The notes: generated by a model not told the origin, from the letters alone. DNA of 64,000 bases from an uncultured Acidobacteriaceae bacterium (GCA_963800575.1 CAWDBN010000013.1:4497-68496); one strand, 5' to 3'; shown: positions 24,987 to 44,900, numbered from the stretch's first letter. A program made the numbers and translations.

Positions 24987-25922
24987 TTAAGGGCGCGACG
25001 AGTTGCCCATCATCAGCACAAACAAAAGTGGAAGGTAGATGACTGTGGCTTGCAACACATGACGAGCGAGCATCTTCGATCGCGGGGCGTTGATGGGCAA
25101 TTTGAGAAGCGCTAGCCTGGCGCCAAAGTAGAAAAGAGCAGCGCCAAGAATCACCGCTCCCACCAGATAGATCTTTCCTGCCATGCCGAAAACACTCGGC
25201 AGAACGCTCAGTGGAATCAAAATCAGCGAGTAGGCCACGATGCGCCTAGCCGTGGATCGTCCGTCCTCTTCCACCACTGGCAGCATGCGAATTCCGCCGG
25301 CGGCGTAATCCTCCCGATAGAGCCACGCAATGGAGAAAAAATGCGGAAACTGCCACACAAAAAGGATGGCAAACAATATCAACGTGCTCCACTCCAGCCG
25401 CCCGCGTGCGGCCGTCCAACCCAAAACTCCCGGCATAGCTCCCGGAAAAGCGCCCACGAACGTGCAGATCGGCGAGACCCTTTTTAACGGCGTATAAACC
25501 GCCAGATACACCACCGATGTCAGGAGAGTCAGCAGACCGGTCAGCAGATTCGTGAAAACCGCCAGATAAATTGACCCGCCTACAGTAGCCAGCACCCCGG
25601 CCGTCGCAGCATGAGCAAGACTCATACGGCCCGCTGGCAGCGGACGCTGTGCGGTCCGGCGCATGTTCCCGTCTACCTCGTGCTCCATCACTTCATTGAG
25701 TGCCGCAGTTCCGCTTGAGACCAGTCCGATCCCCAGTAGGGCGTGTAAAAGCCCCCACGATAGCGAAGAAACCCCAGCCTTCTGCGCACCGAAATAGTAG
25801 CCACACCACGCCGTCATCACGATCAGAGAAGTCACGCGCAGCTTCATCAATTCGGCATAGTCGCGCAAGAGAGAAGTCGCTTGCTTGCGAAATAAAACCA
25901 GGGGTTGGGTCATCGCGCTCAT
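24987..25922 (-). CDS. ctaB: Protohaem IX farnesyltransferase (haem O synthase)
   Basis: UbiA-family polytopic protein. The start is chosen at MSAMTQPLV. The length and the N..E....D.....M.RT..RPLP region are typical of CtaB/CyoE. Confidence 0.85.
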   Translation of the reverse strand: MSAMTQPLVLFRKQATSLLRDYAELMKLRVTSLIVMTAWCGYYFGAQKAGVSSLSWGLLHALLGIGLVSSGTAALNEVMEHEVDGNMRRTAQRPLPAGRMSLAHAATAGVLATVGGSIYLAVFTNLLTGLLTLLTSVVYLAVYTPLKRVSPICTFVGAFPGAMPGVLGWTAARGRLEWSTLILFAILFVWQFPHFFSIAWLYREDYAAGGIRMLPVVEEDGRSTARRIVAYSLILIPLSVLPSVFGMAGKIYLVGAVILGAALFYFGARLALLKLPINAPRSKMLARHVLQATVIYLPLLFVLMMGNSSRP

Positions 25923-26124
25923 GGAAGATTCAGTGGTGTGGTTGTCGTACCGCTTCCTTACACTCGAACACGCCCTCCAAGCCTGGCAAGAGGGCAGCTC
26001 CCACAAAGCGGCCCAAATACTTAAGAATTGTATGGGTACTCCGATGGCTTTCGAAAGTCAAGTCGAAACTCGGGAATCGGCCCACCAGCCTCTGATCCCG
26101 AATCTCAGGATCCGCCCGCAACCA

Positions 26125-27540
26125 CTACTGGCTAGCCGAAACGCCGGTCCCATTGAAAGTTTCCGGCGGATCGAAAAAGCATTGATGCCACAGAGCTGCG
26201 TCGGATAATTTGCCCGCCTTCCATTGCTGAAGCGTCGGCAACGTGGCGGCCAGCATCCCTCCGTCGACCGCATCGAAGATCACGACCACCCCGGCAAGCT
26301 CCTGCGGCTTCTGCGCGAGTTCCGCGTAATCCTTGTCGAGCACGGACTTCGCGAACTCCAGTCTGAGCTGAGGGCCTGCGCTCTGCTTCTCGTCAATTTT
26401 TTCCACCGAAACGATCCTCACATTCTTGCCGCGAAGAGGCGCCCAATCTCCCGGAAAAGGCGCGGTTTCTTCGCGCGTCACATGAAACAAATCCGCCGCC
26501 ACCGATCCCGATGCAGCACTCGCCGGCGCATCGCCATCCGGAACGCTGTCGGGCATTTCGAGGCTGTTACGCCAGATCCATCCTCGTGATAGTCCGGAGA
26601 TCCTCACATGGACCCAATCCCGATTGAAGTCGAGCATCTCGAACTCATCGTGTGCGCTGGCCAGGAACAGAGTCTTGGCCGTCAGACTCGCGGTCTCCAC
26701 CACCGGCGTTCCCGACTTCTTTACCGCTACAAGATTCCTGGGATGCGCCTGATTTTTGAGAATCTCCTCCAGACTCTCTGCCTCGGCTCGCAGGCCGGAA
26801 TCTTCAACAGGTTTGTTACCCGCGGCACCGGCTTTCTCTTGCTCGGCCAAAGTCTGTGCCAGAGATGACGACAAACCGCCATTGGCGTCAGGAAGTCGAG
26901 GCTCCGGCGCTGAGAGGGCAGGTTCCGTTGCAGTTGGCGTCTTCGCCACGGGTACAGCGGCAGGTTGCCTTGCCGGAGATTGCCCCGCGGGAGTGCGGAC
27001 CGGCGGACCTTGCGCCGAAACGATCGGTGCGGGGGCCGTTGCTAGAGAAGACTTCTGCGATGGGACCGGCTTGGGCTCCGCGTTCACCGGAGCGCTCGCC
27101 CCAACTTGCTGTCCCTTGGCCGCGAGCTGATCCGCCAGTTGATCCAGCAGGTCTGCTTCCAGCCGTCCATTCGAGGTCAGTACTTGATATCCGGAACGCG
27201 CCGCGACTGGGTCCGTATACCAGGCTGTCACGGAGACGCTTACGCTAACAATCGATCCCCCGGAAGGAGCCGCCGTAACCTGAATTTTCGCCTCATAGTA
27301 GCCGCGCCGGTACCGCTCGAGGGGATGATCGGCCGAAGTCGCGAATCCTTCGAGCACTGGAAGACGTCCGGCAGTGGCGGCCTGGATTTCTTGCACAGCC
27401 TTCTCCACCTGGGCTTTGGACTGTGGGAAGGCCCGCTCTAATCCGTTGCCTTGCGCGTGGCCTCGCGGCGCACCGAAAAAAACCAGCGCCAATAGGAGTG
27501 CCGAGACTGCCGGGCTGAATTCTGCTCCGCGACGTTTCAT
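26125..27540 (-). CDS. Secreted hypothetical protein with P/A-rich linker and SH3b-like segment
   Basis: 471 aa with a signal peptide (LLLALVFFGAPRGHAQG), a low-complexity P/A/Q linker, and FNRDWVHVRISGLSRGWIWRNSLE, which resembles a bacterial SH3 strand pattern. Confidence 0.55.
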   Translation of the reverse strand: MKRRGAEFSPAVSALLLALVFFGAPRGHAQGNGLERAFPQSKAQVEKAVQEIQAATAGRLPVLEGFATSADHPLERYRRGYYEAKIQVTAAPSGGSIVSVSVSVTAWYTDPVAARSGYQVLTSNGRLEADLLDQLADQLAAKGQQVGASAPVNAEPKPVPSQKSSLATAPAPIVSAQGPPVRTPAGQSPARQPAAVPVAKTPTATEPALSAPEPRLPDANGGLSSSLAQTLAEQEKAGAAGNKPVEDSGLRAEAESLEEILKNQAHPRNLVAVKKSGTPVVETASLTAKTLFLASAHDEFEMLDFNRDWVHVRISGLSRGWIWRNSLEMPDSVPDGDAPASAASGSVAADLFHVTREETAPFPGDWAPLRGKNVRIVSVEKIDEKQSAGPQLRLEFAKSVLDKDYAELAQKPQELAGVVVIFDAVDGGMLAATLPTLQQWKAGKLSDAALWHQCFFDPPETFNGTGVSASQ

Positions 27541-27550
27541 TCCTGCACTT

Positions 27551-28750
27551 TCATTTCTGCACCAAGTCGTCGCGCATAATCCATCCGTGTTGACCGTCGT
27601 GCGTTTCTACGCCGTACCAGTAGGGCGTCGAAATCAGAATCAGGACTTCCGTGCCAGTGGGCAATGACTGCAGCGTGCTGGCAGTATGGAAGGGCGCGGA
27701 TTTCAGCGGTGCTCCCGGATCTTTCACTAGCCGCTCGAGCTGCCGGCGGAGATCTTTGACGTGCTCTTCCAAGCTCTGACCGGACGCGATCGCCGCCGGC
27801 CCGCTCCCACTCGGCAGACTCGGACCAGGCTGATCCTGACTGGGCTGATCTTGACCGGCCTGGCTTTGCATTGGCTGATTTTGCATTGGCTGGTTTTGTA
27901 TCGGCTGCTCTTGTACCGGTTGGCTCTGATCGGGCATGCTCTCGCTTGCAACCTGCGTAGTTCCGCTGGGAGCGGCATCTTGGCGACTCTCAACGGGCGC
28001 TGCCGCCGCCGGTTGCTCGGATTGCGGCACCGGCCAAGCCCCTGTCTCCGCCTGCGATGAAGAGGTTTGCTTCTTCTCCAACTTTTCCCGTCGTTCGTTC
28101 AACGCCTCGACGTTCTGCCTCTGCATGAGTTCGATCGCGTCAATGTGCTCGCGAATGTCCCGGTACTCGGCGCTTTCGACCGAACCGTCGGATTGATGCA
28201 CGATGTGGCGGAAGTCTTCCTTAAAAAGCGCATTGATGCGCAACACCGTGTTCTTCTGACCTTGAGGTTGTACGATATAGCGCACAACCAGGGTTCCTGA
28301 GTCGCTGCTATCCTTGAAGTTCCGCGGGTCAAGCGCCTGCTCGCGAACTTTGTAGAAAACCTTTCCCCCCTCAGTCCAGGCGGGAAATACGTGCGACGAG
28401 GTCGCCGCTTTTGCGCCGCTGACAAACTCGTCCTTGTTGTATTCTTTGGTTCCACGGATCACTCCGTTATCCGCCACCTCTGCCACCACCTGCTCAACCT
28501 CGCTCTCCGGCGCGGGAATGTTGACTGCCAGTCCCTCGCCGTAGTGCAGCTTATCTTTTCCACGCCCAGCCAGCGGAAGCGCACCCGGGAAGAGCAGTAG
28601 CAGTAGGACCAATCTCGCGGACGCGCGCACCCGTCCCGCCGCAGTGCAGCGGCAACTAGCGCCGCCAGCCCCTCTGCTCGCGCTGTTTCTATCTCTAATC
28701 TCGGCACGGGAGACCAACCACCCGCTCCCATCACTTCTCGACCGACCCAC
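27551..28750 (-). CDS. Secreted hypothetical protein with Q/P pentapeptide repeats and C-terminal SH3b-like domain
   Basis: 399-aa ORF with a hydrophobic signal-like segment LVLLLLLFPGALPLAG, a QxQP(M/I) repeat tract and the C-terminus LPTGTEVLILISTPYWYGVETHDGQHGWIMRDDL. The start codon is uncertain. Confidence 0.55.
   Translation of the reverse strand: MGRSRSDGSGWLVSRAEIRDRNSASRGAGGASCRCTAAGRVRASARLVLLLLLFPGALPLAGRGKDKLHYGEGLAVNIPAPESEVEQVVAEVADNGVIRGTKEYNKDEFVSGAKAATSSHVFPAWTEGGKVFYKVREQALDPRNFKDSSDSGTLVVRYIVQPQGQKNTVLRINALFKEDFRHIVHQSDGSVESAEYRDIREHIDAIELMQRQNVEALNERREKLEKKQTSSSQAETGAWPVPQSEQPAAAAPVESRQDAAPSGTTQVASESMPDQSQPVQEQPIQNQPMQNQPMQSQAGQDQPSQDQPGPSLPSGSGPAAIASGQSLEEHVKDLRRQLERLVKDPGAPLKSAPFHTASTLQSLPTGTEVLILISTPYWYGVETHDGQHGWIMRDDLVQK
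27836..27925. repeat. In-frame 15-bp tandem repeat (about 6 units) encoding QNQPM/QDQPS pentapeptides
   Basis: The units are ttgcattggctgatt / ttgcattggctggtt / ttgtatcggctgctc / ttgtaccggttggct plus degenerate flanking units, all inside CDS 27551-28750. Confidence 0.7.
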
Positions 28751-29084: not shown

Positions 29085-30608
29085 ATGCACGTTTCGAGTC
29101 GTTTTCATCTCCGCAACATCTTGCAGCTCGCGACTTCGTTCGCGGCTGTCGCTCTGGTTCTTGCATCCGTAGTCCTCACCTGCAGCCAGCCCGCGCATGC
29201 CCTGCCGGCGTTCGCCCGGAAGTACGGGCTGCGCTGCTCGGCCTGCCACGAGTCCTGGCCGATGCTGAATTACTTTGGACAAAAGTTCAAAGACAACGGG
29301 TATCAGTTGATGAACGATCGCGATGCCCCGATTTGGCAGAACCCTGGATACTGGCCGGTGGTCTTTCGCATCACGCCGATCTGGCACCGGGTGAGCGTCG
29401 GCAAGGAAGACGTTGACACCTACGCGGGCGGAGTCCTCACGGGTACGAATGCGGCGGTCCAGCGCATCTCAAGTTCCGGCTTCGACCTGAGCGGACTCGA
29501 CTTCCATACCGGCGGAACCCTGGAAAAGAACATTTCGTTCTATTTACTTCCGTCCTCTGATCCTACCGGCGCTTTCCACTTTGAGCAGGTCTTTGTGCGC
29601 TTTGACAATATTGCCCACAGCCCCTGGCTTAATTTCAAGCTCGGTCGATTCGAACTCGACAACCTGCTTTCCGAAAAGCGCATTCTCACCCTGACCGGGA
29701 ACGGCGGCGTTTATCAGACTTATCACTTCATCCCGCAAGGTGACGGGAACATCTTTGGGCAGATCGGCGACAACCAGCTCGGTATCGAATATCTGGGGCA
29801 CTCCGTGGACGATCGGACGCGAATTTCCGCGTCTCTTGTCAGCTCGAGCGATGGCAACGTGAACCTCAGTACCACAGCCAACGCCTACACCGCGTTCTTT
29901 GCCGGAAGCCAGGCTTTTGACGCCGGCAGGCTGGGGGTACAACGGGTCGGCTTCTATGCCATGGCTGGAGAGGCGTCAACGTATTATCTGACCTCTAATG
30001 GCGGGGTTCCAATTCCTGGCTCCGGAATCGGCAACAAGAGCTTCACGCGCGAAGGGTTCGTAGGGCAGTTCTACGCGGGCCCGCACATCGGCCTCACGAT
30101 CGTGACTCAGCATGGCTCGGATAACGCGTGGTTCGGGCAGGGTTATGGCGGTGCAGAAGCCACGGATGGCAACGGAGGCAACACCTGCGGCGCTCCTCCG
30201 TGCCCCCCAAACAATGTGCCGGGAACGACTCTTCCGGTCGGCTCACAAGCGCCCAGTTGGAACGGCGCCACCTTCGAGGGTCACTACATCTACAGTCCGC
30301 AGCTGATTTTCATCAGCCGGTATGAGTTTGAGAAAATGTCGCAGCAGGCCAACGGGTCGGGGTACGGCGCTTTGGTCACAGGAGCCAACGGATTCACAGG
30401 CCCCATGCCTTCCAACCTGGGCAACATCTCAACCTACACCATCGGCTTCCGCTACAACCCGTTCATGACCAGCCGCGCCGGCTTAGCCTGGCACAACGAG
30501 TACAACTGGCTGCACCAGGACGGCACTGGCCCGGCAAATCTTACGACCGGGGCGCTTACCAACCTCAACACCAGCGAAATTCTGATGGGACTCGACTTCG
30601 ACTTCTAG
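29085..30608 (+). CDS. Fused monohaem cytochrome c / beta-barrel outer-membrane protein (Cyc2/Cyt572-like architecture)
   Basis: ATG 29085 is preceded by GAGGAG with a 7-nt spacer. A signal peptide ends in AHA. A single CXXCH (FARKYGLRCSACH) follows directly after the predicted cleavage site. The following ~460 aa are beta-rich and G/S/T/N/Y-rich, ending in ...ILMGLDFDF (an aromatic C-terminal OMP signature). Confidence 0.7.
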   Translation: MHVSSRFHLRNILQLATSFAAVALVLASVVLTCSQPAHALPAFARKYGLRCSACHESWPMLNYFGQKFKDNGYQLMNDRDAPIWQNPGYWPVVFRITPIWHRVSVGKEDVDTYAGGVLTGTNAAVQRISSSGFDLSGLDFHTGGTLEKNISFYLLPSSDPTGAFHFEQVFVRFDNIAHSPWLNFKLGRFELDNLLSEKRILTLTGNGGVYQTYHFIPQGDGNIFGQIGDNQLGIEYLGHSVDDRTRISASLVSSSDGNVNLSTTANAYTAFFAGSQAFDAGRLGVQRVGFYAMAGEASTYYLTSNGGVPIPGSGIGNKSFTREGFVGQFYAGPHIGLTIVTQHGSDNAWFGQGYGGAEATDGNGGNTCGAPPCPPNNVPGTTLPVGSQAPSWNGATFEGHYIYSPQLIFISRYEFEKMSQQANGSGYGALVTGANGFTGPMPSNLGNISTYTIGFRYNPFMTSRAGLAWHNEYNWLHQDGTGPANLTTGALTNLNTSEILMGLDFDF

Positions 30609-30618
30609 AGAGGATGAC

Positions 30619-31497
30619 ATGCGGACACGATTGCAGAATTGGACGCTTTTGCTCAGCTCAGCTGCCCTTTTGGCGTTTCCGTCGGCTTCCTCGGCGCAGC
30701 TCACGACATTCGACATACAGACACGTCTTGGTACGGAAAGCCACGTCGGAAACGTCACCGGTCACGCCAAGGACGCTGCACCTGATTACCGGCGCTATTG
30801 CGTCGGCTGCCACGGCGATCTTGGAGACGGAAACGGCGAAAACGCTGTCTGGATGCAGCCTCCGATGTACCAACAGCCACGCGACTTCCAGTTGGGTGTA
30901 TTTAAGTGCCGCTCCACTCCCACTGGAACCTTGCCCACAGACCAGGATCTGTTTGACGCCATCACTCGCGGCTTTGACCGGTCCAATATGCCGCCGTGGA
31001 ACACTTTTACCAAACAGCAACGCGCCGACCTCGTCGCCTGGGTGAAGCACTTCTCTCCCCGCTTTAAAACCGAGAAACCTGGAACGCCAATCACCATTCC
31101 TCCTGAGCCCGAAGTCACCCCTGAGCGTATCAAGGCTGGGCGCGAGGTATTTGCCAAAGTGCAGTGCTGGAAGTGCCACGGCGTGCAAGGCATGGCGAAC
31201 GGTCCGTCCGCTTCCACCCTTACCGATGATCTCGGCCGTCCAATCGCGCCTTTCAACTTCACTGACGGATCCCGGCCGAAGTGCGGCGACACTGATCAGG
31301 ATATTTACCGGATCTTCATGACCGGCTTGGACGGCACTCCGATGCCTTCATTTGCCGACAACATCAAGCCCGATGAGGCCTGGGATTTGGTTTTCTATTT
31401 GCGAACGTTTATGGCTCAGAAGAGCCGAGAGAAAGAACTGGCGAAACAACTAGGCTTGAAGCCGGTTGATCCCAACGCTCCGGTGGCGCAACAATAG
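30619..31497 (+). CDS. Periplasmic dihaem class I cytochrome c
   Basis: 292 aa with a signal peptide (AFPSASSAQ) and two CXXCH motifs (CVGCH, CWKCH), each followed by a distal Met-Pro (SNMPPW, GTPMPSF). It starts 10 bp after the upstream gene. Confidence 0.85.
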   Translation: MRTRLQNWTLLLSSAALLAFPSASSAQLTTFDIQTRLGTESHVGNVTGHAKDAAPDYRRYCVGCHGDLGDGNGENAVWMQPPMYQQPRDFQLGVFKCRSTPTGTLPTDQDLFDAITRGFDRSNMPPWNTFTKQQRADLVAWVKHFSPRFKTEKPGTPITIPPEPEVTPERIKAGREVFAKVQCWKCHGVQGMANGPSASTLTDDLGRPIAPFNFTDGSRPKCGDTDQDIYRIFMTGLDGTPMPSFADNIKPDEAWDLVFYLRTFMAQKSREKELAKQLGLKPVDPNAPVAQQ

Positions 31498-31549
31498 GCG
31501 GAGAAAAGCGTCGTGTCACCGATTTGCTTTTCGTCTTAAAGGAGAAATC

Positions 31550-32293
31550 ATGAGGAAGCGATTCAATCCCGCGGTCGTACTATCGCTGATAGTTTTAGTT
31601 GGCTGTGCAGCGTTGATCTTGGGTCAGAAAGTCAACGCTGCCGGAGAAGGCAAGATTACCGGTACGGTAAAACTGAGTGGCACGGCTCCGCACATGAGGG
31701 GCATCGACATGTCGAAAGACCCGTACTGCGTTAAGGCTAATCCGACTCCCGCCCACTACCAAAACGTAGAGGTTGGTTCGGGCGAAGGACTGGAAAATGT
31801 GGTTGTCTACATCTCCGACTGGAGCGGCACGGCTGAGGTAACGACAACGATCCCCGTATTCGATCAAAAGAACTGCATGTATGTGCCGCACGTGTTGGCA
31901 ATGGATGTAGGTGAGACATTCAAGGTGGTCACCAGCGATCAGACAGCCCACAACATACACCCGCTGCCCAACCCGATGATTAATGTCGGGTGGAATCAGT
32001 CTCAGCCGCCGGGAGCACCACCGGTCGAGAAGAGTTGGAAAGCTGCGGAGTTTATTCCGGTGCAGTGCAACATCCATCCTTGGATGCACGGTTATTTCGC
32101 TGTGGTCAAAGGCCCTTACGCAACCACCGATGCGAACGGCTCCTTCACCATCAGCAACGTGCCGCCCGGAACTTACACGGTGACTGCGTGGCATGAACCC
32201 GACCCCGCCCTGCCGCAAAATACCCAAGGTCAAAAGGTGACAGTCGCCGCCGGGGGCGCGGCATCCGCCGACTTTACTTTCAAGGCGAAGTAA
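31550..32293 (+). CDS. Cupredoxin (type 1 copper) protein with C-terminal carboxypeptidase-regulatory-like beta domain
   Basis: ATG 31550 is preceded by AAAGGAG, and a signal peptide is present. Candidate T1 Cu ligands are H (AHNIHP) and C-x2-H-x2-M (VQCNIHPWM), the same loop spacing as amicyanin CTPHPFM. The C-terminal segment is GSFTISNVPPGTYTVTAWHE. Confidence 0.7.
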   Translation: MRKRFNPAVVLSLIVLVGCAALILGQKVNAAGEGKITGTVKLSGTAPHMRGIDMSKDPYCVKANPTPAHYQNVEVGSGEGLENVVVYISDWSGTAEVTTTIPVFDQKNCMYVPHVLAMDVGETFKVVTSDQTAHNIHPLPNPMINVGWNQSQPPGAPPVEKSWKAAEFIPVQCNIHPWMHGYFAVVKGPYATTDANGSFTISNVPPGTYTVTAWHEPDPALPQNTQGQKVTVAAGGAASADFTFKAK

Positions 32294-32345
32294 GGGCAAC
32301 GGAAGTAGGGAACTGAGAGATCTGCAAAATCATCATCTGAACAAC

Positions 32346-32379
32346 CGAATCGCCGCAATTAGGCTCTTGCGGCGATTCG
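32346..32379 (+). promoter_or_regulatory. Perfect 13-bp-stem hairpin between the cupredoxin gene and coxB
   Basis: cgaatcgccgcaa (32346-32358) pairs perfectly with ttgcggcgattcg (32367-32379) across an 8-nt loop. No U-tract follows, so it is not a canonical intrinsic terminator. Confidence 0.5.
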
Positions 32380-32416
32380 ATTATGAAGGCCGGGTTTCCG
32401 GCTAAAGGCGGACGAT

Positions 32417-33220
32417 ATGGCGAAAATATTTGCGGTGACGATCGTTGTGATCGCAATTGCTTCGGCGATTCCCATCGTGATGCACATGTGGCCGATGCCG
32501 CCCGACATCTCCACCCACGGCCATCTGATCGACGAGCAGTATGCCGATACGATGCTGGAAGCCGGTATTTCCTTCCTGGCCTCTCAGTTCCTGCTCGCCT
32601 TTTTCATCTGGAAGTTTTCCAACCATAAGCCCAGCGACAAGATTAAGCGTTTCCCTGGCGGAGCTGCTGGATTGGTAATAGCCGCTTTCCTGTTGGTAGG
32701 TACCGAATGCCTGGCTTTGGGTGTGTTCGGAGTAAAGGCCTGGGCTAGCGTTTATCTCACCCCTCCCGCAGCCGACGCGCTGCCGGTGCAGGTGCAGGCG
32801 GGACAGTTCGCGTTTTATTTCCGTTATCCCGGACCGGACGGAATCTTCGGCCCAATTCACGCCGACCAGATCAGCGAGGCCAACGCGAATTTCTTCGGGC
32901 TCGATACTACGCATGACCAGGCTTCCAAGGATGACATCGTCACCGCTGAGATGGCCATTCCTGTGAACCGTGAAATTCACTTACTCATGCATTCGAAGGA
33001 TGTAGGCCATTCCTTCTACGTCCCCGAATTGCGCGTCCAGCAGGACTTCGTTCCCGGCTTGGACGTTACTCTTCATTTCACGGCCACTAAAATCGGGAAG
33101 TACGAAATCGTCTGCACCCAGCTTTGCGGCCTCGGGCATTACAACATGAAGGCCTATCTCGAAGTGAAGTCTCAGGAAGATTACGACGCTTGGATCAAAC
33201 AGCAGGCAGCTCTGCAGTAG
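32417..33220 (+). CDS. coxB: Cytochrome c oxidase subunit II (no fused cytochrome c domain)
   Basis: 267 aa with two N-terminal TM helices. The CuA site is HSFYVPEL ... CTQLCGLGHYNM. Confidence 0.9.
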   Translation: MAKIFAVTIVVIAIASAIPIVMHMWPMPPDISTHGHLIDEQYADTMLEAGISFLASQFLLAFFIWKFSNHKPSDKIKRFPGGAAGLVIAAFLLVGTECLALGVFGVKAWASVYLTPPAADALPVQVQAGQFAFYFRYPGPDGIFGPIHADQISEANANFFGLDTTHDQASKDDIVTAEMAIPVNREIHLLMHSKDVGHSFYVPELRVQQDFVPGLDVTLHFTATKIGKYEIVCTQLCGLGHYNMKAYLEVKSQEDYDAWIKQQAALQ

Positions 33221-33271
33221 CGCTGAATTTGCGCACGATGTGGCCCAAACATCTGGCTTGAGGTGAGCACA

Positions 33272-35056
33272 ATGCACGACATGTCCGCACATGCAGTGGG
33301 TCATGGAGCCCCGACCAGCTTCATCCGGAAGCACGTGTTCAGTACTGATCATAAGGTCATCGGCAAGCAGTATTACGCGCTGGCTTTGGTCGCTGCCTTC
33401 TTCGGTATGTTTCTTTCCTGGCTCATGCGTATCCATCTGGGGTGGGGCAGTTTCGCGATCCCAGGGCTGCATCTGCTCTCGAAGAACGGCGCCCCGGGCG
33501 ACGTAATGACGCCGGAGTACTATCTCCAACTGATGACCATGCACGGCACCATTATGGTGTTCTTCGTGCTCACCACCGCCCCCTTTGCAGCCTTCGGCAA
33601 TTTCTTTTTGCCTATCCAGACAGGCGCGGAAGACATGCCCTTCCCGCATTTCAACATGATGTCGTTCTGGGTCACCTTCACAGCCTTCTTGCCTATCGTT
33701 GCGTCATTCTTTGTCAGTGATGGGCCCACCCTGGGCGGCTGGACACAGTATGCCCCACTGAGCGCGATCGGTCCCGTTGGCGGTCCTGGCGAGGGTTGGG
33801 GAGTGATTCTCTGGGCGACCTCGATTGGTCTTTTCTGCATTGGCCAGTTACTGGGTTCGCTGAACTTCATCACTACCACGCTTGATATGCGTTGCAAAGG
33901 CATGTCCCTGATGCGGCTCCCGCTCAGCACCTGGGGATGGTTCATTACTTCGATCATGGGCTTGACGGCGTTTGCCGTGCTGATGCCCGCCTGCATCCTT
34001 CTCATTCTCGATCACGTGGCCGGAACCAGCTTCTTCGTAGCCTCGAATCTGGTGATTAACGACCAGATGTTGCCGCACTCCGGCGGATCGACTCTGCTTT
34101 GGCAGCACCTGTTCTGGTTCTTCGGCCATCCCGAGGTCTACATCGCAATCGTCCCCGGCATGGGCATCGTTTCCCACGTTCTCATCACGAACATGCGCCG
34201 GCCGATGCTCAGCCACCGAGTGCTCATTTATTCCATGGGATCGCTGGCCGTCCTCAGCTACATGGTCTACGGACACCACATGTTCGTCAGCGGGATGAAT
34301 CCCGTCTCTTCGCTGGCCTTCTCGTTCCCAACGCTGGTCATCACCATTCCCTCCACCATCGTCGTGCTGATTTGGCTGGGTAGCCTCTATGGCTCCAAGT
34401 TGCGGATCAACGCCGCCTCGCTATTCGCGCTCGGGTTCATTTCGATGTTCATCAGCGGCGGCGTGAGCGGCTTTTTCCTGGCTCAGCCTTCCATCGACAT
34501 CATGCTGCACGCCACCTATTTCGTGGTCGGCCACTTCCATCTGGTGATGGGCGTTGCGGCCATGTTCGGCATCTTCGCGGGAACCTACTTCTGGTTCCCC
34601 AAGATGACCGGCCGCATGATGAATGAGACTCTGGGCAAGGTTCACTTCTGGATGAGTTTCGTAGGTGCCTACTGCATCTTTATGCCGTTCCACTACCTGG
34701 GAATTGCCGGCAACGTGCGCCGCTACCAGGCTTTCACCGACGATTACCTGATCCCGCTGATCCCCGTTCATAAGTTCATCACCGTAGCGGCGCTGTTCAC
34801 CGGGGCTGCCCAGCTGGTTTTCCTTTACAACCTGATCCACAGCCGGTTCTGGGGTGCACATGCGCCGAACGACAACCCGTGGGAAGGGACATCCCTCGAA
34901 TGGAGCACGGCCACGCCGCCGCCCCATAACAACTTTGGCGACAAGATGCCCGTGGTTTATCACGATCCTTATCAGTATAGCGTCGAGGGCGCCAGCGCCG
35001 ACTACATCATGCAGACTTCGCCGGAGAGTGTTCATAGCCCGGACGAAGAAAAATAA
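33272..35056 (+). CDS. ctaD: Cytochrome c oxidase subunit I (A-family haem-copper oxidase)
   Basis: About 594 aa with 12 TM helices and conserved blocks (GHPEVYI, HHMF, VVGHFH). ATG 33272 is preferred (GAGGTG lies 6 nt upstream) over the track GTG at 33263. Confidence 0.92.
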   Translation: MHDMSAHAVGHGAPTSFIRKHVFSTDHKVIGKQYYALALVAAFFGMFLSWLMRIHLGWGSFAIPGLHLLSKNGAPGDVMTPEYYLQLMTMHGTIMVFFVLTTAPFAAFGNFFLPIQTGAEDMPFPHFNMMSFWVTFTAFLPIVASFFVSDGPTLGGWTQYAPLSAIGPVGGPGEGWGVILWATSIGLFCIGQLLGSLNFITTTLDMRCKGMSLMRLPLSTWGWFITSIMGLTAFAVLMPACILLILDHVAGTSFFVASNLVINDQMLPHSGGSTLLWQHLFWFFGHPEVYIAIVPGMGIVSHVLITNMRRPMLSHRVLIYSMGSLAVLSYMVYGHHMFVSGMNPVSSLAFSFPTLVITIPSTIVVLIWLGSLYGSKLRINAASLFALGFISMFISGGVSGFFLAQPSIDIMLHATYFVVGHFHLVMGVAAMFGIFAGTYFWFPKMTGRMMNETLGKVHFWMSFVGAYCIFMPFHYLGIAGNVRRYQAFTDDYLIPLIPVHKFITVAALFTGAAQLVFLYNLIHSRFWGAHAPNDNPWEGTSLEWSTATPPPHNNFGDKMPVVYHDPYQYSVEGASADYIMQTSPESVHSPDEEK

Positions 35057-35097
35057 TCTTCAAGCAGGTCGTTGGGTTTCAGCAGGAGAGTAGCAGT

Positions 35098-35775
35098 ATG
35101 GCAACCACAGTCCACGAACCGCCGAAAATCGACGACCGCCTGCCGAGCCACGGCTCGGGGAACGGCTGGCGCAATCTTGTTCCTGCCGATGGCGAATTGC
35201 GCGGCGTCAAGGATTCTTCCCCTCCCCCCGCGAGCACCGGAATCTGGGTAGGCTTGGCGGCCATCACCATGAGTTTTGCCGCCTTCACCAGCGCGCTGAT
35301 CGTTCGTCAGGGGACTGCACCTTTGGTGCACATCACTTTACCCCCAGTGCTTTACCTGAACACGCTCGTGATCGTCGCCAGCAGCTTAACGCTCGAAATA
35401 GCACGCCGCAGGATTGCGGCCTTTATGGGTGGCGGCCTGGCAGGCAAAGCCAGCCAACAGGAGAATCCCGCACGCTGGCTGTATATCACCTTGTTTCTGG
35501 GACTGCTCTTTGTTGCGGGACAAACCTTTGCCTGGATTCAACTCAAATCTCAAGGGTTCGGCCTCGCCACCAACATCAGCTACTCGTTCTTCTATGTACT
35601 GACTGTCGCTCACGCTCTGCACGTGTTCGGAGGGCTCGGCGGTCTGGTCCGGGTGATTGGCAAACTGAACAAATCGGTCCTGCGAAGGAGCACTCTGGAC
35701 GCCACTTCGCGTTACTGGCATTTCATGGGTGTGCTGTGGGTGTATCTGCTTTTGCTGCTTTGGATGAAGCTCTGA
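35098..35775 (+). CDS. ctaE: Cytochrome c oxidase subunit III
   Basis: 225 aa and polytopic. The C-terminal segment YWHFMGVLWVYLLLLLW is typical of subunit III. AGGAGA lies 8 nt upstream. Confidence 0.85.
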   Translation: MATTVHEPPKIDDRLPSHGSGNGWRNLVPADGELRGVKDSSPPPASTGIWVGLAAITMSFAAFTSALIVRQGTAPLVHITLPPVLYLNTLVIVASSLTLEIARRRIAAFMGGGLAGKASQQENPARWLYITLFLGLLFVAGQTFAWIQLKSQGFGLATNISYSFFYVLTVAHALHVFGGLGGLVRVIGKLNKSVLRRSTLDATSRYWHFMGVLWVYLLLLLWMKL

Positions 35776-35813
35776 GCGACGACGCTCGAACCCAGTCAAA
35801 GGTAGGAGGCAAC

Positions 35814-36449
35814 GTGAGTCAAGCCGATCTTTCAATTCACGGTCAGGTGTCGCGAACCGATGCGACGGAGTTTATGACCGCACCCACATTCTCGGTCGCG
35901 GCCAAGAAAATGGCGATGTGGCTGTTCATCATCGCAGACACCGCGACCTTTGCCGGTTGTCTGGTCGCCTACGGATTCATCCGCAACGCCACTCCCGATT
36001 GGCCAAGACCTTTTCACAGTATCTCGAACGTACTGGTGATGACACTGATTCTGCTCACCAGCAGCTTGACCATGCTCATCGCAGAACGCCACGCCTGGCT
36101 GGGTGACAAAGCCAAAGCGTTTCGCTGGACCATGATCACCGCGGTTTGCGGAATCATGTTCGCCGCTCTCCACCTGCGGGAATGGATGGGCCTGATCGGA
36201 GAAGGCGCGACGCTATTTCACAATCCCTGGGGCACGCCTTTATTCAGTTCGATGTTTTTCAGCATCACGGGCCTGCACCTGCTGCACGTAACCGGCGGAG
36301 TGGTTGCTCTCATCGCCGTGGGCCTGCGCTACCAGGGCGGACGCTACAACGCCGATGACCTCGAAATCACAGGGCTCTATTGGCATTTCGTGGATTTGGT
36401 TTGGATGTTTGTTGTGCCGCTGGTCTATCTTTTGAATCTATCCCACTAA
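35814..36449 (+). CDS. Second haem-copper oxidase subunit III-family protein
   Basis: A GTG start at 35814 is preceded by GGTAGGAGG. The segments MAMWLFIIADTATFAG... and YWHFVDLVWMFVVPLVY match the subunit III/CyoC family. Confidence 0.8.
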   Translation: MSQADLSIHGQVSRTDATEFMTAPTFSVAAKKMAMWLFIIADTATFAGCLVAYGFIRNATPDWPRPFHSISNVLVMTLILLTSSLTMLIAERHAWLGDKAKAFRWTMITAVCGIMFAALHLREWMGLIGEGATLFHNPWGTPLFSSMFFSITGLHLLHVTGGVVALIAVGLRYQGGRYNADDLEITGLYWHFVDLVWMFVVPLVYLLNLSH

Positions 36450-36474
36450 GACAGACACGCAGGAGCGAATCTCT

Positions 36475-36786
36475 ATGACTACCGCCGAAACCCATAAGAA
36501 TAGTGGAATGACGAATGATCTGATCGTCTTCGTTTGTATTCTGGCCCTGGCGGGGCTACAGTTCGTGATCGCATATCAGGACATTAGCGCGTCCCAGATG
36601 TTAGTCCGCATGCTCTCGGTCGCCGTGATTGAGGCTGCCCTGGCGCTGCTGTTCTTTATGCATTTGGCCGCGAATCGCGGATTGTTGTGGTTTGTCGGAA
36701 TCTTCACCGTCTTTGTGCTCCTTGCCATGCAATACGGCTGGACGGATAGCTTCCGGCTGACCAGCGGTGTACCATGGGCAAAGTAG
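36475..36786 (+). CDS. Cytochrome c oxidase subunit IV (prokaryotic CoxD/CtaF-like)
   Basis: 103 aa with three hydrophobic helices, an AGGAG RBS, and a position after the subunit III genes. Confidence 0.7.
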   Translation: MTTAETHKNSGMTNDLIVFVCILALAGLQFVIAYQDISASQMLVRMLSVAVIEAALALLFFMHLAANRGLLWFVGIFTVFVLLAMQYGWTDSFRLTSGVPWAK

Positions 36787-37109
36787 CCAAAGCAACCATG
36801 AAGCTCTGGAAACCAATCTCGTTTGGGTGCATTGCGCTGGTCGGGCTGATCATCCTGCTAGCTCCAGTGCCAGCCTCCGCCCAGAGCTGCGCTCTGTGTT
36901 ATACCCAGGCCGCGGCATCGGGCTCTCGAATGATTCAGGCCTTGAAGAGTGGCATCCTGATCCTGATCGCTCCGCCGACCTTCATGAGCATCGGGTTGAT
37001 CTTCGTTTGCTATCGCAAACGCAATCAGACGCGTAACGACAGCGCCGAGTCAGACAGCGATTGGCGCAAAGTCGACGACTCAGACGATTTCTCATCCAGG
37101 AACTGGTAG
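36774..37109 (+). CDS. Small two-TM membrane protein with CxxC (CALCY) loop and acidic tail; hypothetical
   Basis: The ORF overlaps the subunit IV stop by 13 bp. It has two hydrophobic helices flanking SCALCYTQAAASG. There is no recognisable RBS, and an alternative start exists at MKLWKP (36798). Confidence 0.45.
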   Translation: MGKVAKATMKLWKPISFGCIALVGLIILLAPVPASAQSCALCYTQAAASGSRMIQALKSGILILIAPPTFMSIGLIFVCYRKRNQTRNDSAESDSDWRKVDDSDDFSSRNW

Positions 37110-40335: not shown

Positions 40336-41499
40336 TCACTTCGCCGGGCCCTTCTGCGCTTCCGGAGGTACGGGGGGCCTGGCAAACTTAGCATCATCCA
40401 CCGGAACATTCTCCTTCACTTCACTAATCTGAATCGTGAACCGGCCGCCCGGCCGCGCCAGCGTCCAGCGGAACGGAATTTTCACTCCGCCCGCTTCGCG
40501 GTAATCCGCATAATCGATCTGCGTGGGCAACAGCCCCAGCGGCGTGTCTCCGTACCGAACCAGCCGCACCAGCAACCCCGACTGCTCGTCGAAATACATC
40601 CGCAGCGGCGTTTTACCATCACGCTGCCCAATTACCAGGTAGGCATCGCGCTCACCTATCTTCTCCGTGCCTGACGCCTCCACTGCGCTGAACATCTCTT
40701 TCAAGTGCGCAGCAAAGTGAAGATCCGCGTCCATCGAAGCACCGTCGACATCGGGCCCGTGCATTTCCCGCACTGCATGCCCGGGAACTCCCAGCCAGCC
40801 TTCGTGCCCGTCGAAAGCGGTGACGCTGTCTCCGTCCGGCGTGTGCGTGAACGACACTCGTTTGTCCGGATCCTTCGAGAAAATATCGATCGGAATATTC
40901 CTGTCACCGAAAGTGATCGTCCCCTTCATCACTCGGCTCGTAATTTTCTCGACTGCAGCGGCGCCGCCAACAGCCTGCAGATATTTGTCGAGCAACTGAT
41001 CAGCCGGTGGACCACCCGCTTCCTTTCCCGCCTCTTGGCTGTTCGTTTCCTCCGCCTTCTTCGCTTCGCCAACGCCCATCGGCGCTTCCGCCATTACTAA
41101 CGGCGTAGCGATGGGAGTGGCACTACCCCGGTGGCAGGAATAGCAAGTCACCTCGCGATGTCCCTCGAAGTTATCCTTATTGATGGCGAACATCATCTGT
41201 ATCATTTTCCGCGCGGTCTGCTTCGTCTTTTTGTCGTCCTTCTCAAACGCGCCCTCCACGTGGCAAAACTGGCACTCCACTCCCAGTGACGCCGTGATGA
41301 ATTGCATCGCCGGGAACACTTGATCCGCCGGAATTCCTTTGAGCGCCTGAATGTTCTTGAACTGCTCCTCGGCTTTTTTCGGTCCGGCAGCGTTCGCAAC
41401 CGTGGCCGCACCCGACTGCGCCTTCGCCTCGCCGATCGCGATTCCACCGAGCATCAGCAAGACGACCATGCCAAAGGCTGAAAGCAGTTTTTTCTTCAT
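40336..41499 (-). CDS. Secreted c-type cytochrome (photosynthetic reaction-centre cytochrome c subunit-like N-domain, 2 CXXCH) fused to a LolA-like/beta-sandwich C-domain
   Basis: The start is taken at MKKKLLSAFG (signal peptide). The segments FKNIQALKGIPADQ...CQFCH and ...CYSCH follow the PRC-cytochrome-family pattern. The ORF track extends the start to 41688, which would overlap the upstream gene. Confidence 0.7.
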   Translation of the reverse strand: MKKKLLSAFGMVVLLMLGGIAIGEAKAQSGAATVANAAGPKKAEEQFKNIQALKGIPADQVFPAMQFITASLGVECQFCHVEGAFEKDDKKTKQTARKMIQMMFAINKDNFEGHREVTCYSCHRGSATPIATPLVMAEAPMGVGEAKKAEETNSQEAGKEAGGPPADQLLDKYLQAVGGAAAVEKITSRVMKGTITFGDRNIPIDIFSKDPDKRVSFTHTPDGDSVTAFDGHEGWLGVPGHAVREMHGPDVDGASMDADLHFAAHLKEMFSAVEASGTEKIGERDAYLVIGQRDGKTPLRMYFDEQSGLLVRLVRYGDTPLGLLPTQIDYADYREAGGVKIPFRWTLARPGGRFTIQISEVKENVPVDDAKFARPPVPPEAQKGPAK

Positions 41500-41539
41500 C
41501 GATTTAGCCCCAATAGAAAATTTCGGAAACAAGTACTTT

Positions 41540-43420
41540 TTACGGCTGATTACTGTACACGTATTTACCAGAAAGCTCCGCGATGACAAACTTCGCCGGC
41601 AAAAGTTCATCAACTTTCGCCATTTCGTATGGAGGCACAAACAGGAACACTCGTCCGCTCCCCGCCCAGTCGCGTTGCAAATCTGCATCGCTCAAATAGA
41701 TATTGGGCGCATCCGCGAAGGTCGAACCGAACCACATCGAAGTCGTACGCCCCTCCACCAGATCAATCGGCCGCCGCAGATAAAACAGCAACGAGGACCC
41801 GAACGCCTGGTCGCCGTAAATCATCACCTTATCTTCCGGCCTTGCCCGCGCCTCGATTTCCTGCGCCAACTGCTTCGAAGAAAGATACGGACCAAACCGC
41901 CCGAGAGCGATGTGCGCCGCCACCAGGAAGACCGCAAATCCTGCTCCGAGAGCCCAGGTCGCAGAATAATGCCGCCGGTACACGCGCAGAATGAATGACG
42001 TGAACGGAGCCACCAGCAGCACCGCGGCGGCCAGCGCCGCCGGAAGCCGCAGCGCGGCAAATGACGCATAGCTCAAATCGAGAATGTGCGACATCGAAAG
42101 CTGGTACGCGTTCAGATCCTGCTTGCCCAGCACATTTCCGATGTCCGCCTCGAACGGTAGGTTCCGCGACTTCCACAGTCCGATCAATAATGCAACGCTG
42201 GCTGCAACTCCAATCGCCGCCAGAAAGCCCGCGGAGGTCGTCAGCCAACCCGTACGCACCCCGCGTTCACACTCCGTCTGCTCGCACTGTGCCACACCGT
42301 CCGCCAGCAACAACAAAAGTGGCAAGTAGGCAGGAAACGTGTAGTACTCCTGGTTGGTCGACAAGGCGAAAAAGATCAGAACCACCCCCGCCCAGATCCA
42401 GCACAGCATCCTAGTCCGCAATGCGAAATCGCTCAGCCGCCGCTCTGCACTCTGCCTTGTCTCGGAACTTGTCTCTGAACTGCTGCGCCAGCTCCGCCAC
42501 GCTCCCATGGCAGTCGTCACCGCCGCCGGCAAATAGAGACTCCACGGAAACAACCACACCAGATGCAGCGTCCAGTACAGTGTTGCGGGAAGTTTGCTGT
42601 AATCCCGCGGATACCGCTTGCCCAGGAATCTCAGGAAGTGTTCGTTCACGAAATAAAACCAGAAGAAACCGTGATGGTCCGCCGTACCCGGATTCCGCAG
42701 CCCCGCCAGAATATGCCACGGGGCGGCAATCGCCAGAAATAACGCCAGCCCTGAAATCAACCGGAACTGCCGCCAGCGCCGCCAATCTCCCGTAACGAGC
42801 AGAAAGAAGAATGCCGCCCCGCAGGGAAATACCAGTGCAATCAATCCCTTGGTCAGCACGCCCAACGCCATCATCGCGTATCCGGCATACCATCTCCACG
42901 GCGCAGCATCTGGCTCGAGCGCTGTGAGGAAAAAATACATAGCCGCCGCGATCAGCAGGCTGAGCAGCACATCCGGGATGAGAACCCGCGTAAACAGGTA
43001 CACGCCCGCGCAGGTAAAGACGAACAAACTCGCATAAATCCCGGTCCGCTCCCCGAACGCGCGACGCCCCCAGCAAAACGCCAACACTCCCAACAGCAGC
43101 ACCGACAACACCATCGGCAGCCGCGTACTGAATTCGTTCACTCCTAAGGCCTTGTAGCAGATTGCCACCAGCCAGTACGGCAACGGCGGTTTCTCCAGAT
43201 ACCGGACTCCGTTGATGTGCAGCGTGACGTAGTCGCCCGTCACGACCATTTCGCGTGCCGCCTCCGCGTGTGTACTATCGGCGTCATCCAGCAGCCCGGG
43301 GGTAAACATCGACCCAACGTAAACCGCGAGAAACACCACCGCCAGCGCCCAGTAAGCCACCCTGGACCCGTGCCCACGCTGGTTTTCCGCAGATGTAGGA
43401 GAAACCGGATTTGCCATCAA
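41540..43420 (-). CDS. GT39/ArnT-like (GT-C fold) glycosyltransferase
   Basis: 626 aa. The N-terminal two-thirds contain many TM helices with an ArnT/PMT-like loop (LDDADSTHAEAAREM...YLEKPPL). A soluble C-terminal domain follows. Confidence 0.75.
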   Translation of the reverse strand: MMANPVSPTSAENQRGHGSRVAYWALAVVFLAVYVGSMFTPGLLDDADSTHAEAAREMVVTGDYVTLHINGVRYLEKPPLPYWLVAICYKALGVNEFSTRLPMVLSVLLLGVLAFCWGRRAFGERTGIYASLFVFTCAGVYLFTRVLIPDVLLSLLIAAAMYFFLTALEPDAAPWRWYAGYAMMALGVLTKGLIALVFPCGAAFFFLLVTGDWRRWRQFRLISGLALFLAIAAPWHILAGLRNPGTADHHGFFWFYFVNEHFLRFLGKRYPRDYSKLPATLYWTLHLVWLFPWSLYLPAAVTTAMGAWRSWRSSSETSSETRQSAERRLSDFALRTRMLCWIWAGVVLIFFALSTNQEYYTFPAYLPLLLLLADGVAQCEQTECERGVRTGWLTTSAGFLAAIGVAASVALLIGLWKSRNLPFEADIGNVLGKQDLNAYQLSMSHILDLSYASFAALRLPAALAAAVLLVAPFTSFILRVYRRHYSATWALGAGFAVFLVAAHIALGRFGPYLSSKQLAQEIEARARPEDKVMIYGDQAFGSSLLFYLRRPIDLVEGRTTSMWFGSTFADAPNIYLSDADLQRDWAGSGRVFLFVPPYEMAKVDELLPAKFVIAELSGKYVYSNQP

Positions 43421-43574: not shown

Positions 43575-44900
43575 TCACTGCTGTTTCCCTCCCGCCTCCC
43601 CACCCCGAATAAAATATCGCCACTTGTCCATCCCGGCCGGCACCGCCACATCGAAAAATCCGACCATCATTTCCTGTGACGTCTGATCGCCCCAAGTTAC
43701 CATCTTCTCCGGATCCGGATTATGTGGATTATTCTTCGAATTGTCATACCACGCCACCGCCCGCAACTTTGTCCCCGCCTTCAACTCCCGCGGCTCAGCC
43801 AGCTTGTAACTCAGCTGCCAGTGAAAGTGATAATTCACCCGCAGTAGCGTCTCCACGCTTCCATCGTCGTGCACAATGTCATATTCAAACCGCTTCCCGC
43901 GCAAATGCATGTGCGGGAAAAAGCTAAGCAAAGTTGCATCGTTCGGCAGAGTCCCCTCCACCTCTACTCGAAAATCGTTCGCTCCCGGCGGAATCAGCAA
44001 CGCATGATTATTCAACTGCAGTGTGATCACCCGCTCCTTCGGCGGATTCTTCGCAAAAACCAGCCCAACACTAGTCTCGTCGCTCGATGCCTCGCCGTTC
44101 GTCGTGTAGTGCATCTGAAACACCAGATCCGACCCCGCCGGAACAAACTTCGCCATCCCGTCCGCCCATCGGTCAGGCGCACTCCCTGGCGCATACACCA
44201 ACAGCAAATCGCTCGTAGTCTCGTGCGCCTGCCGCCGTTCCTCCGGATCCGTCAGCATCGAGGCCGTGAACGGCTCGCCCACCGGCGCATGCCGCAGCCA
44301 AGGCGAATCCGGAGGCCGGATGTACACCACCGCATGATGCACATGCGCCGCGCTCGAAGGCCGCGCCTCCACCATCTGCACCCATTTGTCCTCGGTAAAA
44401 TGTGTAGGCACAATCTCGTACGTGTATTCCACCTCGCCGTTAGCTGGAATCTGCACCGCCTTCGGCATTTTCACCACCAAGTCCGGCTTCGGGATGTTCC
44501 AGTCTCCACTCCATGTCCGCGGAGCAGGCGCATCGCGCGCGTCTCCAGGCGGTGCTCCAGCATTTGCCCAGGCCACAATGCTCGCAATCTGCTCCGCACT
44601 CAACGAAGGATCATTCGCAAAATGCCCATATCGCGGATCGGCAAACCAGGGTGGCATCATCCGCATCTGTACCGCAGCCGCAATTTTCGCTGCCCAGGGC
44701 CGTGTCTGCTCATAAGTCACCAGCGCCATCGGCGCAGCCTCCCCGCTCCGGTGGCAACTCTGGCATTTGTCCTGGAGCATCGGAAGCACATCCTTATAAA
44801 AAGTAGGTGACGCAGTTTTCTCATTCCCGGCGGGAGCCGAACCCGGCATCTGCGAGAGTGCCCCCGTCAACAGCAGAGTCAACGCCGCCGCGAAAACCAT
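43575..44900 (-). CDS. Haem c (CXXCH) domain fused to a copper type II ascorbate-dependent monooxygenase (DBH/PHM)-like domain
   Basis: The start is chosen at MVFAAALT (signal peptide). The N-domain is FYKDVLPMLQDKCQSCHR...MPPW. The C-domain has HHAVVY and FPHMHLRGKRFEY (HxH...M copper-site-like motifs). Confidence 0.7.
   Translation of the reverse strand: MVFAAALTLLLTGALSQMPGSAPAGNEKTASPTFYKDVLPMLQDKCQSCHRSGEAAPMALVTYEQTRPWAAKIAAAVQMRMMPPWFADPRYGHFANDPSLSAEQIASIVAWANAGAPPGDARDAPAPRTWSGDWNIPKPDLVVKMPKAVQIPANGEVEYTYEIVPTHFTEDKWVQMVEARPSSAAHVHHAVVYIRPPDSPWLRHAPVGEPFTASMLTDPEERRQAHETTSDLLLVYAPGSAPDRWADGMAKFVPAGSDLVFQMHYTTNGEASSDETSVGLVFAKNPPKERVITLQLNNHALLIPPGANDFRVEVEGTLPNDATLLSFFPHMHLRGKRFEYDIVHDDGSVETLLRVNYHFHWQLSYKLAEPRELKAGTKLRAVAWYDNSKNNPHNPDPEKMVTWGDQTSQEMMVGFFDVAVPAGMDKWRYFIRGGEAGGKQQ

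Follow-up and report, generated by a model that had tools for sequence, protein, structure and literature searches.

A conserved gene cluster joining a Cyc2-family cytochrome-porin, a dihaem cytochrome c and a cupredoxin to an aa3-type oxidase in peat and soil Acidobacteriota

Genes of the operon

We consider here a stretch of 64,000 nt of DNA from an uncultured Acidobacteriaceae bacterium (GCA_963800575.1 CAWDBN010000013.1:4497-68496), called the window in what follows, and within it a putative operon at positions 29085-37109, in which a cyc2-like gene, a dihaem cytochrome c gene and a cupredoxin gene precede the genes of an aa3-type cytochrome c oxidase. Reading the window for open reading frames (ORFs), we found nine consecutive and co-directional ORFs on the + strand:

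29085..30608, +, gene 1: cyc2-like gene for a signal peptide, a monohaem cytochrome c domain and a predicted 16-strand outer-membrane porin, 507 aa (Cyc2 signature, AlphaFold2, Foldseek)
30619..31497, +, gene 2: periplasmic dihaem cytochrome c, 292 aa, with CVGCH and CWKCH (Pfam Cytochrome_CBB3/Cytochrom_C, twice)
31550..32293, +, gene 3: secreted type-1 copper cupredoxin with a CarboxypepD_reg-like β-sandwich part, 247 aa (copper ligands, AlphaFold2, Foldseek)
32417..33220, +, gene 4: coxB, subunit II, with a CuA site and no fused cytochrome c (Pfam COX2; TIGR02866, E 1.2e-33)
33263..35056, +, gene 5: coxA, A-family haem-copper oxidase subunit I (Pfam COX1, E 1.6e-121; FGHPEVY)
35098..35775, +, gene 6: subunit III-family gene a (Pfam COX3, NF050119)
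35814..36449, +, gene 7: subunit III-family gene b; the ORF opens at 35736 and the likely start is GTG 35814 (Pfam COX3, CyoC/QoxC-like matches)
36475..36786, +, gene 8: subunit IV (Pfam COX4_pro, 29.8 bits against a cut-off of 28.9)
36774..37109, +, gene 9: small conserved membrane protein with a CALCY (CxxC) motif (no Pfam or NCBIfam family)

The original prediction, made from the sequence alone, had described these nine genes on one strand and all are present, with the start of gene 3 corrected to 31550, which gives a 247-aa product identical to a public protein (P0405). The spacers are, in order, 10 bp (between cyc2 and the dihaem gene), 52, 123 (between the cupredoxin gene and coxB), 42, 41, about 38, 25 and -13 bp; for the sixth, gene 7 is taken to start at GTG 35814, which has AGGAGG upstream, and the value becomes -40 if the ORF opening at 35736 is used. 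Pfam and NCBIfam recognise six of the nine genes (dihaem cytochrome c, CoxB, CoxA, two COX3 and COX4_pro) and give no informative family match for gene 1, for the cupredoxin part of gene 3 or for gene 9. The 3' end of the operon, at 37109, meets a convergent glnD.

No match to gene 1 was found in sequence searches of Pfam, NCBIfam and the PDB, and we therefore give the published description of the Cyc2 family beside it. According to Keffer et al. (2021, PMC8406198), a Cyc2 has a signal peptide, a single CXXCH, at least 365 aa and a 16-strand porin for which OprO/OprP serve as modelling templates; the motif AXPXFAR[Q/K][T/Y], stated to be unique to Cyc2, lies just upstream of the CXXCH, and PXL lies about 4 residues downstream (PMC8406198). 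Every one of the published sequence features is found in gene 1, whose signature reads ALPAFARKY-GLR-CSACH-ESW-PML. Residues 1-39 (MHVSSRFHLRN...VLTCSQPAHA) have by inspection the hydrophobic core and the AHA of a signal peptide, with a helix at 7-32 in the AlphaFold2 model. The AXPXFAR[Q/K][T/Y] motif corresponds to A39-Y47, in which P41, F43, A44, R45 and K46 show no or almost no variation among relatives, down to about 28-30% identity. The single haem motif, CSACH, is at residue 51, with C51, C54 and H55 invariant in 55 sequences, and PXL is P59-M-L61, whose P and L do not vary among the 55 sequences. The protein ends in GLDFDF.

The AlphaFold2 model of gene 1, obtained with the alignment of its relatives as input (predicted local distance difference test, pLDDT, 74; predicted template modelling score, pTM, 0.74), contains 16 β elements between residues 92 and 506, with a pLDDT mostly between 75 and 94; the model of the haem domain is poor, as is to be expected when the cofactor is missing. 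Foldseek comparison of this model with the PDB returned 16-strand porins, namely Omp38 (1.5e-11), PorB, OprP 2o4v (4.8e-11) and OprO 4rjx (4.4e-9), and OprP and OprO are the structural templates reported for Cyc2 (PMC8406198). This barrel prediction was one of the checks put forward for the porin-cytochrome call, which it bears out. From the pattern of long loops and short turns in the model we infer a porin layout with short periplasmic turns, long extracellular loops and an L3-like loop at 191-229. Residues ~355-385 (DNA ~30147-30240) form a clade-specific insertion with a conserved Cys pair, TCGAPPC, in a loop of low pLDDT between strands 11 and 12, and this insertion is absent from relatives of 430-450 aa. 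By porin topology the Cys-pair loop would be extracellular, and it could alter the access or the specificity of the substrate.

As a comparison set, we used the plasmid-borne Cyc2-type proteins of cultured Caballeronia, Ralstonia and Methylocystis. The cytochrome domain of gene 1 is homologous to that of the Caballeronia proteins (hhalign probability 98.4, E 6.6e-15), whose motifs are ALPAFARQT...CVACH...FPEL. This domain alone aligns: the porin part gave no sequence alignment with the Cyc2-type proteins of the three genera, a situation that the family curators describe as typical for Cyc2 (PMC8406198). On plasmid pSBC1_3 of Caballeronia sp. SBC1, a cultured soil member of the Burkholderiaceae (L164, locus 4933-7950), a HiPIP gene lies ~0.7 kb upstream of the Cyc2-type and c-type cytochrome genes; the annotated start of this Cyc2 at 6067 truncates the signal peptide and PAFARQT, which begin at ~5932.

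Motifs and predicted fold together place gene 1 in the Cyc2 family of fused cytochrome-porins, and an outer-membrane location and an Fe(II) oxidase activity are predicted for its product by analogy. Fe(II) oxidation has been reported for Cyc2 of all three clusters of the family, including a cluster-3 type expressed in E. coli (PMC8406198; PMC13647500). As the network cluster that holds Cyt572 contains Acidobacteria homologues (PMC10654088), there is a hint that gene 1 probably falls in the Cyt572-containing Cyc2 cluster 3.

Gene 2 carries a Sec-type signal, and the two haem sites initially read in it are confirmed by both motifs and Pfam. In a PDB search it matched chain B of 6H5L (E 3.8e-56, residues 55-266) with both haem motifs aligned, 6H5L being an HAO structure from K. 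stuttgartiensis (preprint), and no c4-type cytochrome was recovered at E<=0.1. Since 6H5L chain B is the sole strong PDB relative and no c4 match appears at this threshold, sequence comparison indicates an analogue, and not a homologue, of Cyc1 from Acidithiobacillus ferrooxidans.

Gene 3 had been called a cupredoxin from its C-x2-H-x2-M loop, and this call, which no sequence-based tool detected, was right. Pfam covers only the C-terminal β-sandwich, a sequence search against the PDB returns only β-sandwich repeats, with no detectable homology to AcoP, and public homologues are labelled 'carboxypeptidase regulatory-like domain' by NCBI and often 'plastocyanin' by JGI. In 31 sequences, down to 29% identity, the invariant residues are H134, H137, C173, H176, W178, M179, C60 and C109, and H134, C173, H176 and M179 make up the His...Cys-x2-His-x2-Met ligand set of type-1 copper. 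The AlphaFold2 model (pLDDT 81.6) is matched by Foldseek to amicyanin (5e-7), a Nitrosopumilus cupredoxin and plastocyanins, with a weak match to AcoP 7z3f (1e-4, TM-score 0.44). Judged by its ligands and its model, gene 3 is a genuine type-1 cupredoxin with an amicyanin-like fold and a predicted copper site. No second cupredoxin or rusticyanin gene was found with Pfam among the nine operon genes.

The remaining genes had been named coxB, coxA, two subunit III genes and subunit IV, followed by a small CxxC protein, and Pfam and NCBIfam agree with the oxidase assignments. CoxB has the CuA motif CTQLCGLGHYNM, of the pattern C-x3-C-x3-H-x2-M, and scores 116 bits against TIGR02866, below the model cut-off of 147.7; as it lacks a cytochrome c domain of its own, a soluble electron donor is needed. 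CoxA, which has the GHPEV(Y) motif of helix VI, matches TIGR02891 (E 8e-156) with 519.6 bits, below the equivalog cut-off of 670.75. From their family matches, these genes (coxB, coxA, coxC and coxD) are predicted to encode a complete A-family aa3 cytochrome c oxidase. In 75 related loci gene 9 comes after subunit IV. Its product carries the invariant motif Q-x-CALCYTQA...RMIQAL[KR]SGIL together with another hydrophobic segment and an acidic tail whose last residues are DW; it may be an extra oxidase subunit or a copper or assembly factor.

Distribution of the operon and its surroundings

Using an alignment of 13 gene 1 sequences, we scanned one genome per GTDB species and found that at least 588 genomes encode a relative. 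The best 80 of these at least 588 relatives (64-94% identity), hereafter the 80 loci, are in metagenome-assembled genomes (MAGs) that are labelled or apparently Acidobacteriota, the best relatives being in MAGs named Candidatus Sulfotelmatobacter, Acidobacteriaceae and Terriglobales, from palsa, SPRUCE peat and Danish soils. A mapping of the operon across relatives had been suggested as a further check. With the nine window proteins as tblastn queries, gene order and strand were found to be kept in 80/80 loci wherever the contig was long enough, and because of this conservation the arrangement is not due to chance.

Among more distant relatives (32-55% identity), the cupredoxin, Cyc2 and dihaem genes precede a cbb3 oxidase, represented by ccoN, a ccoO/P fusion, FixS and DsbD_2; one carrier in this cbb3-linked lineage is labelled Thermoanaerobaculia, and one distant locus has the trio without any oxidase. 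In a further sample of 83 soil loci, the dihaem gene lies directly 3' of cyc2 in 62 of the 63 loci with room for it. Where at least 5.5 kb of downstream sequence exist (26 loci), a haem-copper oxidase lies <=6 kb downstream in 20 (16 aa3 and 4 cbb3), and a cupredoxin gene is present in 25. Altogether, the layout recurs in more than 100 related soil genomes or contigs. The conserved unit is the cupredoxin-Cyc2-dihaem trio and the type of oxidase is exchangeable. Because the trio is constant and the oxidase is exchanged, the dihaem cytochrome and the cupredoxin would belong functionally with Cyc2, in a module that feeds O2 reductases, and the co-location in more than 100 loci supports a functional link between the trio and a terminal oxidase.

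In two of the Terriglobia loci (L049, 13441-14310, and L004, 13412-14281), the cupredoxin gene and coxB are separated by a gene of 289 aa whose product has a STAS/anti-sigma-factor-antagonist domain at its C-terminus (TIGR00377, 69.8 bits in L049). In L031, L053, L054, L059, L067 and L072 the gap is similarly enlarged, and gene spacing alone suggests the same insertion. Copies 67-92% identical to the window genes also occur in MAGs labelled Verrucomicrobiia, Binatia, Eremiobacteraceae, Dormibacteraeota and Limisphaerales (L003, L022, L039, P0110, P0508, P0517); as such genes otherwise occur in Sulfotelmatobacter-like MAGs, these contigs are probably mis-binned Acidobacteriota.

Around the operon, the window carries haem-biosynthesis genes, glnD/PII, an alpha-galactosidase, an epimerase and glycosyltransferases, and, on the opposite strand, a haem O synthase gene. 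Two features upstream of cyc2 have been conserved with it:

24987..26006, -: ctaB, linked accessory gene for haem O synthase (TIGR01473, 254 bits; cut-off 210)
26125..28750, -: two conserved genes, 471 and 399 aa, divergent from cyc2, of uncertain membership in the system (weak SH3 matches)

In tblastn comparisons ctaB is retained near the operon in most of the 80 loci. The divergent pair (26125-27540 and 27551-28750, both on the - strand) encodes Pro/Gln-rich, secreted-looking proteins with a weak C-terminal SH3 signal, and its position upstream of cyc2 is kept in nearly all of the 80 Terriglobia loci. On the other side, a PufC-like, non-photosynthetic c-type cytochrome (40336-41688, -; NF033196, 77 bits; two CxxCH) is encoded, and in many related loci too it lies a few kb away from the operon. 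We considered it as a marker of alternative complex III and rejected it, its neighbours being unrelated (PMT_2, dienelactone hydrolase, haem biosynthesis). A further gene (43575-44945, -) combines one CxxCH with a copper type II monooxygenase C-terminal domain. GC skew is persistently and strongly negative over 38000-64000 (-0.15 to -0.32 per 2 kb), against ~0 to -0.09 on the left side of the window.

A candidate electron-uptake branch and its alternatives

Starting from the identity, fold and ligand sets of the parts and from their conserved linkage, we propose that the operon constitutes a respiratory branch for electron uptake, which would carry electrons to O2 from a donor outside the cell, most likely Fe(II); to this proposal we give about an even chance of being correct. 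In such a branch the outer-membrane Cyc2 would take an electron from a small reductant reaching its single haem through or at the pore, and the most likely donor would be Fe(II), either dissolved or in organic complexes, a species stable in acidic peat. The electron would then pass to the periplasmic dihaem cytochrome c and/or to the type-1 copper cupredoxin, and these carriers, presumably made from co-transcribed genes, would reduce the CuA of the aa3 oxidase, which would reduce O2 and pump protons. The inward direction of electron flow is suggested by the physical linkage of the trio to terminal oxidases; in Terriglobia the trio would feed an aa3 oxidase, in another lineage one of the cbb3 type. 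In a host with sugar-catabolic genes in the neighbourhood, such a chain may serve as a supplement to heterotrophy (lithoheterotrophy or mixotrophy) and not as a basis for autotrophy.

Several points weigh against this proposal. The function of the operon in this clade is a prediction from its genes, and, if gene 1 is a cluster-3 member, it belongs to a part of the family that the curators describe as divergent and whose function they call 'most uncertain' (PMC8406198). The operon is found throughout the lineage, whose main low-affinity oxidase it appears to encode, and the carriers could be ordinary links between bc1 or alternative complex III and that oxidase. The 123-bp gap, at which a STAS-domain gene is inserted in relatives, is a seam that may hold a second promoter; the insertion suggests that the trio and the oxidase genes are regulated separately, perhaps as two transcription units. 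A scan for sigma-70 promoters and terminators gave fewer sites than shuffled controls and is uninformative on co-transcription. Lastly, no carbon-fixation or autotrophy gene was seen within the window, which is otherwise heterotrophic, and therefore any energy gain would supplement heterotrophy.

The alternative that survives best takes the aa3 enzyme as the main low-affinity oxidase of the cell and the two carriers as its normal donors, receiving electrons from bc1 or alternative complex III; the Cyc2-like protein would then be a side input for Fe(II) detoxification or for redox homeostasis at the surface, and not for energy gain. Conservation in 80/80 loci suggests a core and not an accessory function, CoxB requires a soluble donor in any case, the neighbourhood is heterotrophic with ctaB and haem-biosynthesis genes close by, and Hausmann et al. 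report, for these MAGs, low-affinity oxidases and quinol-cytochrome c reductases and no iron metabolism (PMC6018796). However, the carriers travel with Cyc2 and not with a given oxidase, since the trio occurs with cbb3, with aa3 and without an oxidase, and the dihaem gene adjoins cyc2 in nearly every locus of the further sample (62/63), and a chain from quinol to O2 needs no outer-membrane haem protein. We consider this alternative unlikely, at perhaps one chance in four.

It is also conceivable, and in our opinion distinctly improbable, that the chain is the one proposed and that its Cyc2-like protein takes electrons from a donor other than Fe(II), such as reduced humic or quinone moieties, Mn(II) or some other small reductant. 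The humic-rich peat habitat given in the locus titles (palsa, SPRUCE, Danish soils) fits such donors, as do literature reports of Cyc2 homologues enriched in humic bog water and proposed for the oxidation of organic matter, and the clade-specific Cys loop, if extracellular, could change specificity; the curators moreover warn that cluster-3-like homologues are divergent (PMC8406198). Yet only small ions, such as Fe2+, are predicted to pass a 16-strand porin with a single haem (PMC8406198), all Cyc2 tested so far oxidised Fe(II) (PMC8406198; PMC13647500), and no Cyc2 is known to oxidise humics or Mn(II). Finally, an export of electrons by the trio to extracellular Fe(III) or humics under anoxia, with an incidental proximity of the oxidase, would suit the facultative anaerobes that Sulfotelmatobacter-like bacteria are (PMC6018796) and the reports of Cyc2 homologues in Fe(III)-reducing taxa, but it agrees poorly with the linkage of the trio to O2 reductases of two families, with a carrier of the high-potential cupredoxin type, unlikely as a component of a reductase, and with the absence of a multihaem conduit, and we regard it as highly improbable.

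Returning to electron uptake towards O2, we suggest, tentatively and with less confidence than for the operon itself, that the trio is a portable 'electron-intake cassette' for aa3 and cbb3 oxidases and a core trait of the dominant Acidobacteriota of peat and soil. In peat, Acidobacteriota of the Sulfotelmatobacter type occur in abundance, and models treat them as degraders of polysaccharides that have a sulfur metabolism. If the suggestion is true, these assumed polysaccharide degraders perform a large and overlooked share of the aerobic oxidation of Fe(II) or reduced humics at the oxic-anoxic interfaces of acidic peatlands, and the turnover of iron, oxygen and carbon is linked there. Should Fe(II) be harvested in periodically oxic acidic peat, the formation of Fe(III) oxides, the stabilisation of carbon and the competition with methanogens would all be affected. 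An abundant soil lineage supposed to be indifferent to iron thereby becomes a concrete candidate for Fe(II)-linked respiration, with its putative periplasmic partners named, and research on Cyc2 gains a well-defined syntenic cassette, made up of cupredoxin, Cyc2 and dihaem cytochrome, from the portion of the family that is least understood.

Comparison with known systems

The original prediction had likened the locus to the rus operon of A. ferrooxidans (cyc2-cyc1-cup-coxBACD-rus). The parts list and the architecture of this analogy hold: both have cyc2 first, a dihaem cytochrome c, a cupredoxin gene just before coxB and an aa3 oxidase, with a haem O synthase gene nearby. Gene-for-gene homology does not: the dihaem cytochrome of the window is not c4/Cyc1-like, the rusticyanin gene is absent from its operon, and its cupredoxin has a β-sandwich part attached and is similar to AcoP in fold only. 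The window has, in addition, two subunit III genes and an extra CxxC membrane protein, and its host is a peat heterotroph whereas Acidithiobacillus is an extremely acidophilic autotroph. By sequence comparison, the operon can thus be called rus-like in order and logic and not a member of the rus family, two defining genes (a Cyc1 homologue and rusticyanin) being missing from it.

It had also been said that no such linked chain was known to be described in Acidobacteriota, which was an overstatement, as both the gene family and the general architecture are already known. In the text consulted, Degli Esposti et al. (2020) describe rus-like COX clusters in soil bacteria, without Cyc1, with other c-type cytochromes and with duplicated COX3, and the layout of these variants is that of the window operon. 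The same text is centred on the evolution of the oxidase and of CtaA and attributes the clusters to lateral transfer from acidophiles; Acidobacteria are not named in it, the trio is not defined as a cassette and the cbb3-linked form is not reported. In surveys based on FeGenie, MAGs of Acidobacteriota figure among the predicted cyc2 iron oxidisers (PMC13594681), and Sulfotelmatobacter-like MAGs have been described as having no genes for dissimilatory iron metabolism (PMC6018796). Sulfotelmatobacter and Cyc2 were not found together in the literature searched. The trio as a cassette, the alternation of aa3 and cbb3 and the universality in Sulfotelmatobacter-like bacteria appear to be undescribed, in a search that did not cover all studies of acidobacterial oxidase operons.

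The closest structural relative of gene 2, chain B of 6H5L from the anammox bacterium Kuenenia stuttgartiensis, was crystallised with an octahaem HAO-like enzyme, of which we take it to be the redox partner, whereas the partners of gene 2 are the Cyc2, cupredoxin and oxidase genes. With the Cyc2 family as described by McAllister (2020) and Keffer (2021), gene 1 shares the signal peptide, the motifs and the OprO/OprP-like barrel; it is longer (507 aa against ~430-450) and has clade-specific loop insertions, one of them with a Cys pair. The proposed neutrophilic pathway of Zetaproteobacteria and Gallionellaceae, in which electrons would pass from Cyc2 to a periplasmic cytochrome c (Cyc1) and then to cbb3, follows the same logic, and the distant relatives of the module lie directly upstream of ccoN and ccoO/P. 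By contrast with that pathway, the oxidase of the window is of the aa3 type, a cupredoxin is the constant third member and all the genes stand in one cluster.

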